Shown piece by piece: positions 1 through 6,041 of a DNA stretch of 12,799 nucleotides; position 1 is the first letter of the stretch; every line of letters begins with the position of its first letter. The notes under the pieces were generated by a model that was not told the origin of the DNA, searched no databases, and saw only the letters and a program-made list of their open reading frames with translations. Both the position numbers and the translations under genes were made by a program. This DNA comes from a virus, in the UHGV virus genome UHGV-1846250. One strand, given 5' to 3'.

Positions 1-26
1 GAGCTTATTATCCTACTATGCGTGTG

Positions 27-115
27 ATTGCATTAAATTGCATGTTAAACAAAAGCATAATCTATATCAGTCAATCAGCCAGTGGCAAGGTGTTGTGATT
101 ACAATGCAACTGCAT
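27..115. repeat. Cluster of TGCAT-containing motifs: direct repeat ATTGCAT at 27-33 and 37-43, inverted pair ATGCA-ac-TGCAT at 104-115
   Basis: Read directly from the sequence; the two ATTGCAT copies are 10 bp apart (one helical turn) and lie in an AT-rich segment immediately left of cos. Confidence 0.3.
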
Positions 116-139
116 TAGAACCGACTCATGAAGCGGGCG

Positions 140-158
140 GGCGAGGCGGGGAAAGCAC
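140..158. other. cos: cos site: 19-nt cohesive-end sequence of P2/P4-type phages
   Basis: Exact string GGCGAGGCGGGGAAAGCAC at 140-158, which I recall as the P2/P4 19-nt 5' cohesive end; it sits about 170 bp from the end of the portal gene, as at the left end of P2. Confidence 0.6.
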
Positions 159-198
159 TGCGCGCTGGCGGTGGTGCTGATTTTATTTTTTCAGCGTC

Positions 199-287
199 TG
201 AGCGCGTCGTGAAGGCGCTTAGTCTGCCCGTTGAGGCGTTGGTGTGTCTGCGGGGTGTTTTGTGCGGTGGTGAGCGTGTGAGGGCGT
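199..287. repeat. Four copies of a TGAG(G)CG(C)GT-like motif (199-207 TGAGCGCGT, 232-239 TGAGGCGT, 271-278 TGAGCGTG, 279-287 TGAGGGCGT) in a G+T-skewed tract between cos and gene Q
   Basis: Read directly from the sequence; non-coding position between cos and the Q terminator makes a cosB-like terminase-binding role plausible. Confidence 0.3.
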
Positions 288-300
288 GATGACGGGGTGT

Positions 301-322
301 AAAAAAGCCGCCCGCAGGCGGC
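301..322 (-). terminator. Rho-independent terminator of the leftward P-Q packaging operon
   Basis: On the minus strand, just after the Q stop (328-330): GCCGCC-UGCG-GGCGGC perfect 6-bp GC stem with 4-nt loop (plus 307-322) followed by six U (plus 301-306 AAAAAA). Confidence 0.7.
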
Positions 323-327
323 GATGT

Positions 328-1362
328 TCAGCCGTTGTCAGTGTCCAGTGAGTAGTTTTTAAAGCGGATGACCTCCTGACCGAGCCAGCCGTTTATCTCG
401 CGGATCCTGTCCTGTAACGGGATAAGCTCATTGCGGACAAAGACCTTTGCCACTTTCTCAATATCACCCAGCGACCCGACGTTCTCCGGCTTGCCGCCCA
501 TCAACTGAAAGGGGATGCGGTGTGCGTCCAGCAGGTCAGCGGCGCTGGCTTTTTTGATATTAAAAAAATCGTCCTTCGTTGCCACTTCACTGAGCGGGAT
601 AATTTTAATGCCGTCAGCTTTCCCCTGCGGGGCATAGAGAAACAGGTTTTTAAAGTTGTTGCGGCCTTTCGACTTCACCATGTTTTCGCGAAGCATTTCG
701 ATATCGTTGCGATCCTGCACGGCATCGGTGACGTACATGATATATCCGGCATGAGCGCCGTTTTCGTAATACTTGCGGCGGAACAGCGTGGCCGACTCAT
801 TCAGCCAGGCAGAGTTAAGGGCGCTGAGATATTCCGGCAGGCCGTACAGCTCCTGATTAATATCCGGCTCCAGCAGGTGAAACACGGAGCCGGGCGCGAA
901 GGCTGTCGGCTCGTTGAAGGACGGCACCCACCAGTAAACATCCTCTTCCACACCACGGCGGGTATATTTTGCCGGTGAGGTTTCCAGTCTGATGACCTTA
1001 CCGGTGGTGCTGTAACGCTTTTCCAGAAACGCATTACCGAACACCAGAAAATCCAGCACAAAGCGGCTGAAATCCTGCTGGGAAAGCCACGGATGCGGGA
1101 TAAATGTCGAGGCCAGAATATTACGTTTGACGTAAATCGGTGAGCTGTGATGCACGGCAGCACGCAGGCTTTTTGCCAGACCGGTAAAGCTGACCGGTGG
1201 CTCATACCATCTGCCGTTACTGATGCACTCGACGTAATCCAGAATGTCACGGCGGTCGAGTACCGGCACCGGTTCGCCAAAGGTGAATGCCTCCATTTTC
1301 GGGGCGCTGGCGGTCATTTTTTTTGCCGCAGGTTGCGGTGTTTTCCCTTTTTTCTTGCTCAT
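328..1362 (-). CDS. Q: Portal protein (P2 gpQ-like), 344 aa
   Basis: ATG-initiated ORF of 344 aa, the same length as P2 gpQ as I recall it, with a recognisably P2 Q-like sequence; start shares one nucleotide with the stop of the upstream terminase gene (TGATG on minus strand). Confidence 0.93.
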   Translation of the reverse strand: MSKKKGKTPQPAAKKMTASAPKMEAFTFGEPVPVLDRRDILDYVECISNGRWYEPPVSFTGLAKSLRAAVHHSSPIYVKRNILASTFIPHPWLSQQDFSRFVLDFLVFGNAFLEKRYSTTGKVIRLETSPAKYTRRGVEEDVYWWVPSFNEPTAFAPGSVFHLLEPDINQELYGLPEYLSALNSAWLNESATLFRRKYYENGAHAGYIMYVTDAVQDRNDIEMLRENMVKSKGRNNFKNLFLYAPQGKADGIKIIPLSEVATKDDFFNIKKASAADLLDAHRIPFQLMGGKPENVGSLGDIEKVAKVFVRNELIPLQDRIREINGWLGQEVIRFKNYSLDTDNG

Positions 1363-3134
1363 CAGTAAAACTCCAGAATGGTGGATGTCAGCGGGGTGCT
1401 GATACCGGCGGTGAGTGGCTCATTTAACAGGGCGTGCATGGTCGCCCAGGCGAGGTCGGCGTGGCTGGCTTCCTCGCTGCGGCTGGCCTCATAGGTGGCG
1501 CTGCGTCCGCTGCTGGTCATGGTCTTGCGGATAGCCATAAACGAGCTGGTGATGTCGGTGGCGCTGACGTCATATTCCAGACAGCCACGGCGGATGACGT
1601 CTTTTGCCTTGAGCACCATTGCGGTTTTCATTTCCGGCGTGTAGCGGATGTCGCGCGCGGCGGGATAGAACGAGCGCACGAGCTGGAACACGCCGACACC
1701 GAGGCCGGTGGCATCAATACCGATGTATTCGACGTTGTATTTTTCGGTGAGTTTGCGGATGGATTCAGCCTGAGTGGCAAAGTCCATGCCTTTCCACTGG
1801 TGACGCTCAAGTATTCTGAATTTGCCACCGGCCACCACCGGCGGTGCCAGCACCACGCATCCGGCGCTGTCGCCACGGTGTGACGGGTCGTAACCAATCC
1901 ATACCGGGCGGGAGCCGAACGGATTGGCGGCAAACGGCGCATAGTCTTCCCATTCTTCCAGCGTGTCGACCATGCAGCGTTGCAGCTCCTCGAACGGGAA
2001 CACCGACGCCTTGTCGTCAACAAATTCACACATGAACAGGTTTTTAAAATCGTCGGCGCTGTTTTCACGTTTGAGCTGCTCAATGTCGAACAGCGTGCAG
2101 CCACCTTTCAGGGCGTCCTCAATGGTGACAATCTGCCGCCACTGGCCGTCCGCACAGAGAAGCCCACCGGCAAGGGCGTTATGACTGACGTCGATTTCCA
2201 CGCGTTCGGCGGCGCTGGCGCGTCCCCGGTTGAACAGTTCACCTGACCAGAACGGGTAGGCGTCGTGCGCCAGCGTGGACGGGGTGGAGAAATAGGTCGA
2301 GCGCAGGTGACTCTGTGAGGCCATACCTGATGCCACCTTACGCAGTACCTGAAAATTCGGGATCCAGAAAATCTCGTCGACGTACAGGTCGCCGTTATGG
2401 CTCTGTGCGGTGTTGGAGTTGGTGCCGAGAAAAATCAGTTTTGCGCCGTTATTGCCCAGGACAATCGGGTCACCGGTAAGGTCAACGTCAACCAGACGGG
2501 CAAAGGCGATGATGTATTCACGGAACACATACGCCTGCGTTTTACTGGCCGACAGAAAAATCTGGTTATGGCCGGTTTTCAGGGCGCGCAGCAGCGCCTC
2601 GCGGGAAAAATAAAACGTCGCGCCAATCTGGCGGGATTTCAGGATATCGCGGATGCGGTGCTCAAGCCCGGCGCGATACCAGTGCAACTGATAGTCGAAA
2701 GACTGCTCAAAGAAAATCTGCTCCAGCTTTTCGATGGCCTCGTCACTGAAAAAATTCTTTTTCGGTTTGCGACGCCCGCCTTTGTTGCGGTTAGCGACGT
2801 TCGGATTAAGGTCTGCCTCGTTGCCGGTCTGACTGTAACGGTTGACCCGTGCCAGTCGTTCAATCTGGCGTCCGAGCAGGTCAATTTCCTTGAAGTCACC
2901 GCCGGTTTTCTGCGGTTTGATGATGAGCTGGGTCAGCCGCGCTTCCAGACTCATTTCGACACGGCTGATGGGGGCAACGCTGTCCCAGCCGTCGCGCTGC
3001 TTCCAGCTCTGCACCGTCGGGCGTTTCATCTGCAACATGGCGGCAATCTGCGGCACGGAAAATCCCTGCCAGTACAGCAGCGCCGCCTGACGACGCGGGT
3101 CGTGTAAAAGAGTGGTGTCTGTGGTGATGGTCAT
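1362..3134 (-). CDS. P: Terminase large subunit / ATPase (P2 gpP-like), 590 aa from the ATG at 3134
   Basis: The track ORF begins at a TTG (3164); the in-frame ATG at 3134 (MTITTD...) has GAGG 7 nt upstream and gives 590 aa, matching P2 gpP. Translation shows a Walker-B-like LYVDE and a C-terminal nuclease region (WIGYDPS...IGIDATGLG). Confidence 0.92.
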   Translation of the reverse strand: MTITTDTTLLHDPRRQAALLYWQGFSVPQIAAMLQMKRPTVQSWKQRDGWDSVAPISRVEMSLEARLTQLIIKPQKTGGDFKEIDLLGRQIERLARVNRYSQTGNEADLNPNVANRNKGGRRKPKKNFFSDEAIEKLEQIFFEQSFDYQLHWYRAGLEHRIRDILKSRQIGATFYFSREALLRALKTGHNQIFLSASKTQAYVFREYIIAFARLVDVDLTGDPIVLGNNGAKLIFLGTNSNTAQSHNGDLYVDEIFWIPNFQVLRKVASGMASQSHLRSTYFSTPSTLAHDAYPFWSGELFNRGRASAAERVEIDVSHNALAGGLLCADGQWRQIVTIEDALKGGCTLFDIEQLKRENSADDFKNLFMCEFVDDKASVFPFEELQRCMVDTLEEWEDYAPFAANPFGSRPVWIGYDPSHRGDSAGCVVLAPPVVAGGKFRILERHQWKGMDFATQAESIRKLTEKYNVEYIGIDATGLGVGVFQLVRSFYPAARDIRYTPEMKTAMVLKAKDVIRRGCLEYDVSATDITSSFMAIRKTMTSSGRSATYEASRSEEASHADLAWATMHALLNEPLTAGISTPLTSTILEFY

Positions 3135-5297: not shown

Positions 5298-6041
5298 ATG
5301 ACGAGTCCCGCACAGCGCCACATGATGCGGGTCTCGGCAGCGATGACCGCGCAGCGGGAAGCCGCCCCGCTGCGACATGCAACTGTCTATGAGCAGATGC
5401 TGGTCAAGCTGGCCGCAGACCAGCGCACACTGAAAGCAATTTATTCAAAAGAGCTGAAGGCCGCGAAAAAACGCGAACTGCTGCCGTTCTGGTTGCCGTG
5501 GGTGAACGGCGTGCTGGAGCAGGGCAAAGGTGCACAGGATGACATTCTGATGACGGTCATGCTGTGGCGTCTGGATACCGGCGATATTGCCGGTGCGCTG
5601 GAGATTGCCCGTTATGCCCTGAAGTACGGTCTGACCATGCCGGGTAAACACCGTCGCACCCCGCCGTACATGTTCACCGAGGAGGTGGCGCTCGCGGCCA
5701 TGCGCGCCCACGCTGCCGGTGAGTCTGTGGATCCCCGCCTGCTGACGGACACCCTCGAACTGACCGCCACGGCTGACATGCCTGATGAAGTGCGCGCAAA
5801 GCTGCACAAAATCACCGGTCTGTTTCTGCGTGACGCTGGTGATGCCGCAGGGGCGCTGGCGCACCTGCAACGTGCGACACAGCTCGACTGTCAGGCAGGC
5901 GTCAAAAAAGAGATTGAACGACTGGAGCGGGAGCTGAAACCGAAGCCGGAGCCACAGCCAAAAGCGGCCACCTGCGCCCCGCGTAAGACCCGGAGCGTGA
6001 CACCGGCAAAACGTGGACGCCCGAAAAAGAAAGCCAGTTAA
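5298..6041 (+). CDS. M: Terminase small / endonuclease subunit (P2 gpM-like), 247 aa
   Basis: 247 aa as in P2 gpM; starts 3 nt after the N stop; basic Pro/Lys-rich C-terminal tail ending KRGRPKKKAS. Confidence 0.9.
   Translation: MTSPAQRHMMRVSAAMTAQREAAPLRHATVYEQMLVKLAADQRTLKAIYSKELKAAKKRELLPFWLPWVNGVLEQGKGAQDDILMTVMLWRLDTGDIAGALEIARYALKYGLTMPGKHRRTPPYMFTEEVALAAMRAHAAGESVDPRLLTDTLELTATADMPDEVRAKLHKITGLFLRDAGDAAGALAHLQRATQLDCQAGVKKEIERLERELKPKPEPQPKAATCAPRKTRSVTPAKRGRPKKKAS

Follow-up and report, generated by a model that had tools for sequence, protein, structure and literature searches.

A family-wide array of TGCAT motifs beside the 55-bp core of P2-like cos sites, a probable accessory element of terminase recognition

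The cos region of P2-like phages carries an array of TGCAT motifs that reaches beyond the 55-bp core usually quoted for it, and sequence comparison together with the analogy to cosB of phage lambda suggests that this cluster is probably an accessory part of the site at which the terminase recognises its DNA. The array is described here from a stretch of 12,799 nucleotides of UHGV virus genome UHGV-1846250 (hereafter the window), which covers the cos region of a P2-like phage (Peduovirus) together with the left arm of its late genes, in the joined or prophage form. The comparative evidence for the array is decisive: at the level of sequence it is a feature of the whole family, of which the window holds a typical copy.

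Results

The cos site of the window is marked by the exact 19-nt 5' cohesive end of P2, GGCGAGGCGGGGAAAGCAC, at positions 140 to 158 of the plus strand; the top strand is nicked at 139/140 and the bottom strand at 158/159. The first base of the P2 and Wphi records corresponds to window position 140, and both cosL and cosR are annotated in the P2 record. The last 139 bases of Peduovirus P24B2 are 100% identical to window positions 1 to 139, and its genome record ends exactly at position 139, an end that was perhaps set by analogy. Positions 1 to 330 match a prophage of E. coli strain 181.1 with 99.7% identity. As this prophage is annotated in RefSeq, cos is flanked by the variable or gene A side and, on its right, by Q (portal), after which come P (large terminase) and then O, N and M; Q, P and M were also recognised by Pfam.

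A conserved cos core occupies positions 104 to 165 and is made up of 36 bp of the right end (104-139), the cohesive end (140-158) and the heptamer TGCGCGC (159-165). The block 104-139 is kept in 109 deduplicated loci and agrees with their consensus except at a few positions (118, 124 and 126); after the TGCAT at 111-115 the window reads TAGAACCG where the consensus has TAAAACCG. Per-position conservation runs 7 bp beyond the cohesive end, to position 165. The 55-bp core published for P2 and P4 corresponds to window positions 104 to 158, as it is given in papers citing Ziermann and Calendar 1990 (PMC9594776, PMC5694545, PMC3931495 and PMC5247547), and PMC3931495 describes the core as needed for packaging. 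The heptamer TGCGCGC is conserved to the same degree as the core, and it is followed by a hairpin on the plus strand that resembles a terminator (162-177) and by a T-run, likewise conserved, at about 181-191. A strong hairpin that resembles a terminator, GCCGCCTGCGGGCGGC with TTTTTT after it, is found on the minus strand at 307-324, just past the stop codon of Q, where it divides the P-Q late transcript from cos.

The motifs of the array are referred to here as sites A, B, C, D' and D, with offsets counted from cos. The preliminary description of this DNA, made from the letters and their open reading frames, had reported ATTGCAT twice at a distance of 10 bp, an inverted ATGCA-ac-TGCAT pair, and the closeness of both to cos (about 110 bp), and all three observations hold. 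The two ATTGCAT copies are at 27-33 (site B, core TGCAT at 29-33, plus strand, offset -111 to -107) and at 37-43 (site C, core at 39-43, plus strand, offset -101 to -97), exactly 10 bp apart from start to start. The inverted pair at 104-115 consists of ATGCA at 104-108 (site D', which is TGCAT on the minus strand, at offset -36, and opens the core), the bases ac at 109-110 and TGCAT at 111-115 (site D, plus strand, offset -29 to -25), and its arms lengthen to AATGCA and TGCATT at 103-116. The motifs thus span 25 to 113 bp left of the top-strand nick. A degenerate copy with one mismatch, TGCGT, is found at 19-23 on the plus strand (site A, offset -121), 10 bp left of B. The spacings of the window, 10 bp between B and C and 72 bp between C and D, are the modal values of its relatives. 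Since the inverted pair is the first 12 bases of the 55-bp core, it belongs to a block already known to be conserved.

TGCAT is rarer than expected over the whole window: the two strands together have 21 matches, where shuffles give 36 +/- 6, and 4 of the 21 fall within the first 115 bp, where the window-wide density predicts about 0.2. When positions 1 to 139 were shuffled with their dinucleotides preserved, 11% of trials produced at least 4 copies and 0.8% a pair on one strand at a distance of 10 bp. Judged from the window alone, the cluster is suggestive and amounts to moderate evidence. Two further features were seen around the motifs. A direct repeat, TGTGATTGCA at 23-32 and TGTGATTACA at 94-103, 71 bp apart, makes the bases before B resemble those before D'; it is absent from other families and may be due to chance. 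The palindrome at 103-116, with arms of 6 bp and a gap of 2 nt, is unable to form a meaningful hairpin, and this candidate was rejected.

We compared the flanks of P2-like cos sites in two sets of loci. The first was taken from IMG/VR contigs anchored on the exact cohesive end, with TGCAT left out of the pattern, and to the left of position 104 it comprises 54 mutually unrelated upstream families. The second, an independent sample, holds one genome per species, found with a degenerate core pattern that likewise lacks TGCAT, and gave 114 usable loci from many genera. In the first set a conserved block runs from 104/105 to 165, and the TGCAT at 111-115 is essentially invariant. TGCAT is present at -111/-110 in 40 of the 54 families, at -101/-100 in 41 and at -29 in 49, with an additional copy at about -125 to -120 in roughly 30 of the 54, against a background of 0.045 occurrences per position summed over all 54 families. 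The species-level set gives the same picture: exact TGCAT occurs at site A (-126 to -119) in 93 of 114 loci, at B (-112 to -110) in 84, at C (-102 to -100) in 82 and at D (-30 to -28) in 103, while upstream control windows of equal width (-255 to -148) contain it in 0-2 of 114 loci. With one mismatch allowed, as the TGCGT at site A of the window requires, A is found in 106 of 114 loci and the controls also reach 1-15 of 114. In a minority of the P2-like loci that seem intact, sites A to C deviate from the motif, B being exact in 79/109 and C in 85/109. These loci are related by descent and the counts are therefore not independent events.

The motifs keep their positions in P2, 186 and P4, which have sites A to D at the same offsets (their A copy at about -124/-123), and in Klebsiella and Erwinia phages and out to those of Burkholderia. 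B and C are separated by 10 bp in 65 of 66 loci, and 68 of 76 have 72 bp from C to D; A and B are mostly 13 bp apart, otherwise 9-10 bp. Information content over the 114 loci is about 1.09 bits per position at B, about 1.1 at C and 1.8 at D, and the bases of site D are each 96-100% conserved in 109 loci. The inverted symmetry at 104-115 fared less well than its right arm, which is near-invariant: the left arm ATGCA was seen at -36 in only about 54-61% of loci (62 of the 114 at species level, 33 of the 54 families), with TGCA at -35 about 90% conserved among loci that have the exact P2 cohesive end. An exact search of IMG/VR for the RSA1-type cohesive end gave zero matches. In Fels-2, in E. coli phage 813R9 and in one Ralstonia phage, the 700 bp that follow gpQ hold a different gene in place of cos, which made these loci uninformative. 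In loci of Cedecea sp. and Citrobacter sedlakii (L176 and L177) the core and D are present and unrelated sequence replaces A to C and the mid-spacer element described below; neither a Q nor a Psu gene was detected alongside, and these loci are maybe remnants or a different hitch-hiking element.

This recurrence bears on the idea that the cluster arose by chance in intergenic DNA rich in A and T, or that it reflects a small ORF encoding a protein. The shuffles of the local sequence do yield four copies or more in some trials, and a 39-codon ORF on the plus strand spans the motifs; but the motifs recur in position in hundreds of loci against 0-2 in the control windows, and the explanation is hardly credible. 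Six-frame translation and an ORF listing gave only this one ORF over the motifs, which is unannotated in two records and non-conserved, and coding sequence was rejected on this ground. Conservation falls in blocks of 5 bp spaced by 10 bp, unlike a codon pattern, the flanks are unrelated between families, and Rfam has zero matches at E <= 1 in window positions 1 to 400. The further suggestion that the motifs lie in the coding sequence of a truncated upstream gene is contradicted by the neighbouring gene, which runs along the opposite strand and has its start directly to the left of base 1.

The motif itself varies between clades, and it does so at distal and proximal sites together. A GC-rich clade whose cohesive end is GGCGTGGCGGGGMGACGA has GCAGG at -111 and -101 and TGCAG at -29. 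To score this co-variation we took the base directly after GCA at each of B, C and D. P2-type cos sites have T, T, T in 75/98 and 88/117 loci and the GC-rich clade has G, G, G in 77/110, with mixed states almost absent; single lineages carry GCAC or TGCAAG at distal and proximal sites alike. About three or four changes at the level of clades underlie the switch, and not hundreds of separate events. Such a joint change is nevertheless what would be expected of a single phage-encoded, co-evolving protein that reads all of the sites. In an Aeromonas-type clade with the cohesive end GGCGAGGCGGGGTCCCGAT (IMG/VR, L369-L405), (T/C)GCAT is kept at -29 and the distal TGCAT copies are replaced by GGATC repeats at -127, -108 and -96, each of which has a Dam site. 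The distal difference of this clade means that a single reader for all sites is not universal.

The sequence between the distal sites and the core (44-103) is conserved in length and not in sequence. Its information content is about 0.19 bits per position over the 28 bp after C (114 loci), its sequence in the window is common only to Peduovirus P24B2 and three E. coli prophages, and most phage and E. coli matches to the window start at 84-106. Within the spacer, the region from -66 to -50 reaches about 0.72 bits per position in the 114 loci. The element found there has the consensus CCAG-nn-CTGGCGCGG at -64 to -50, is partly palindromic and is kept in many P2-like, P4-like and Aeromonas-type loci; the copy in the window, GCCAGTGGCAAGG at 78-90, is shorter and degenerate and overlaps a predicted -35 box (see below).

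The fixed length of this spacer and the partly conserved palindromic CCAG-nn-CTGG at -64 to -57 suggest an architectural complex, and it could be supposed that the distal repeats bind a protein of the host that organises the nucleoid or bends DNA, such as IHF, Fis or an HU-like protein, and that the terminase reads only the proximal site. The Aeromonas-type clade, which alters the distal repeats and keeps the proximal one, fits such a division, as does the need of lambda cosB for IHF. We nevertheless consider a host protein unlikely. The preliminary description had put forward a phased protein-binding array, for example for packaging recognition by the small terminase subunit or as an IHF-like bending site; the array stood up, in that its positions are conserved across P2-like cos regions, and the IHF option found no support, since the IHF consensus WATCAANNNNTTR has zero matches with up to one mismatch in window positions 1 to 200 and only one exact match in the 114 related loci. 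The motif also shifts with the phage clade, jointly at distal and proximal sites, which fits a co-evolving phage protein better than a conserved host factor, and TGCAT is not known to us as the target of any global regulator of E. coli.

P4 is packaged by the terminase of its helper. Homology between P2 and P4 is reported to be confined to cos (PMC9122126). We recognised P4-like satellites by a Psu gene just left of cos and found in their 47 distinct loci site A in 46, B in 44, C in 43 and D in 45, a stricter conservation than in the phages. Since the array is kept in satellites that share only cos with P2 and are packaged by the helper's terminase, it points to a packaging function encoded by the helper. 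Retention in satellites does not by itself single out the terminase, as P4 uses all structural proteins of P2, and the array sits on the right end of the mature genome, where the repeats could serve, in place of cos recognition for cleavage, another helper-dependent step of P2 and P4 such as holding or orienting of the end in the portal or neck, ejection or the joining of ends once the DNA has been injected. Such a role is improbable in our judgement: sequence-specific contacts 97-124 bp from the DNA end inside the channel are to our knowledge without precedent, and the obvious sequence readers encoded in the window are its HTH and small-terminase proteins. The proximal copy, moreover, lies within the core described as required for packaging in PMC3931495.

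To the left of base 1, on the minus strand (L002:3125-5000), lies a two-gene cargo of a 381-aa DUF262/GmrSD_N protein and a 236-aa MAE_28990-type HEPN nuclease. Its start codon abuts window base 1 (offset -140), with AGGA at 11-14 on the minus strand, 10 nt upstream, and a sigma-70-like promoter, TTGCCA-18 nt-TAGATT, is predicted at 88-59 (minus strand) from a consensus scan (1 found against 0.3 expected). The position of this cargo makes the left edge of the window a cos-proximal defence hotspot of P2-like phages (PMC9122126). On the sequence, window positions 1 to 103 are the leader and predicted promoter region of the minus-strand DUF262/HEPN operon, and in this phage the spacer also carries predicted expression signals of the defence cargo. 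With the predicted promoter inside the cos spacer, sites A to C would fall in the leader of the cargo mRNA.

This arrangement would allow the repeats at 27-43 to regulate the adjacent DUF262/HEPN operon, as an operator or an element of its 5' leader, the more so as positions 1 to 103 travel with the cargo and the two together are found only in P24B2 and in 3 of 5,426 E. coli genomes. But the same motifs stand at the same distance from cos beside dozens of unrelated cargos, and regulation of the cargo as their main role is very unlikely. In P2 the annotated old-tin mRNA begins at -151/-149, left of the array; in P4 the array follows psu and a cargo gene is absent. A comparison of P2, P4 and the window gave no fixed position of the array relative to the cargo start or transcript start, and as the distance to the nick is fixed while the relation to the genes varies, the array is to be assigned to cos rather than to the genes beside it. 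The repeats may have a secondary, moonlighting regulatory role for the cargo.

Two proteins encoded in the window are candidates for reading the motifs. The first is gpM, the small terminase subunit (5298-6041, plus strand; Pfam PF05944 Phage_term_smal, E = 1e-47), and the second is gpP, the large subunit (1362-3134, minus strand; RefSeq coordinates and Pfam). The N-terminus of gpP contains an HTH domain (about 2928-3101, minus strand; residues 22-79 of a 600-codon ORF) matched by Terminase_5, HTH_23, HTH_28 and Sigma70_r4_2, an unexpected domain ahead of Terminase_6N and Terminase_6C, the ATPase and nuclease domains. It is conserved from E. coli phages to those of Burkholderia and the Xanthomonas type, and we regard the HTH of gpP and gpM as equally good candidate readers. 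A sequence search of the PDB gave zero relatives of gpM and, for the gpP N-terminus, only a weak HTH match (E = 0.46); a single-sequence AlphaFold model of gpM had a pLDDT of 61, with residues 1-76 below 50, and was too poor for a fold search. At its C-terminus (5940-6038) gpM has a basic tail with an AT-hook-like core, ...TPAKRGRPKKKAS, which is kept in the E. coli P2 group. Distant homologues lack the tail and end near residue 214, and as it is confined to the E. coli group the AT-hook-like tail was ruled out as a reader for the whole family. The putative recognition helix of gpP reads WK[Q/K/R]RD in the TGCAT clades and WK[A/S]RD in the GCAG clade, a difference that is confounded with phylogeny and that we therefore did not count as evidence.

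Discussion

Our comparison points to the TGCAT cluster as a probable accessory element of terminase recognition at P2-family cos. It would be built of the same-strand sites A (at about -124/-121), B (-111) and C (-101) on the right-end side of the nick, then a spacer of fixed length and free sequence, and then one or two proximal copies, D' (-36) and D (-29), which open the 55-bp core. Several DNA-binding domains of the terminase holoenzyme, either a gpM oligomer or the N-terminal HTHs of gpP, would bind the TGCAT copies. B and C are one helical turn apart and thus face the same side of the DNA, and the distance of 72 bp between C and D could set the geometry of a wrapped or looped complex, which would bring the nuclease of gpP to the nick sites, 25-45 bp rightwards of D, and mark phage DNA, and not host DNA, for packaging. 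P4-type satellites, being without a terminase of their own, would have to copy the array in order to be packaged by the helper.

A tentative extension of this scheme, which we consider possible and still the less probable choice, is that gpP reads cos through its N-terminal HTH instead of the small subunit. Each gpP protomer of the assembling motor would then dock on one TGCAT copy (A, B, C, D' or D), and motif and recognition helix would have co-evolved. If so, P2-like phages would be cos phages whose TerL performs the reading that belongs to cosB, with a simple and swappable "packaging code" common to helpers and satellites.

Recognition of phased repeats is familiar from other phages. In lambda, gpNu1 binds the repeated R sites of cosB, and the small terminases of other phages bind phased repeats as well. 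Lambda cosB (R3, R2 and R1 with the IHF site I1) resembles the array of the window in that a short motif is repeated several times to one side of the nick at fixed distances, presumably bound by the DNA-recognition component of the terminase, which places the nuclease. The P2-family motif is different and much shorter (5-6 bp), the IHF consensus is absent, and the large subunit has an HTH domain of its own. In lambda, cosB belongs to the left end, which is packaged first, whereas in the P2 family the mature genome has the array at its right end; the literature searched states no order in which the P2 ends are packaged. P2 terminase acts on circular monomers. The minimal cos site of HK97 and the pac sites of SPP1 and P22 are likewise phased short repeats read by an oligomeric DNA-binding protein and have no sequence similarity to the P2-family array.

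Terminase-recognition repeats are thus known as a kind, and the distal array of the P2 family appears to be undescribed. It is unmentioned in the literature accessible to us. No paper in the literature searched pairs TGCAT with P2 cos, the statements found being confined to the "55-bp core", and P2-specific text was not found in PMC9611059. Site D (111-115) is among the most invariant positions of the core shared by P2, P4 and their relatives, and 60-85 bp separate the core from the ATTGCAT pair at 27-43 and from the degenerate copy at 19-23. A functional cos may need about 125 bp, a figure that was not used as evidence. In a synthetic-biology study longer cos flanks gave better transduction, which was left unexplained (PMC9594776); this is consistent with a functional distal array and does not demonstrate it.

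Defence hotspots beside cos have been described for P2 and P4 (Rousset et al. 2022, PMC9122126; PMC13586616), and the hotspot of the window is like the published ones, with DUF262 (GmrSD_N) and MAE_28990-type HEPN genes between cos and gene A. For these papers cos marks a boundary. In the window, by contrast, the cargo is some 125 bp away from the nick, and this interval holds putative packaging motifs of fixed position, interleaved with predicted expression signals of the cargo itself.

If sites A to C are needed for efficient cleavage and packaging, the functional cos of P2 and P4 would be a modular site of about 125-150 bp, and not the 55 bp usually quoted in papers on genomes and by those who design cosmids. 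This would bear on the design of P2/P4 transducing particles, on the true edge of the cos-proximal defence hotspot and on the way in which satellites mimic their helper. The switch of the motif between clades (TGCAT, GCAG and GCAC) would represent a natural specificity code that is open to swaps of motif and domain, and the motif rule may help to locate cos and to predict the compatibility of helpers and satellites in new Peduoviridae genomes.
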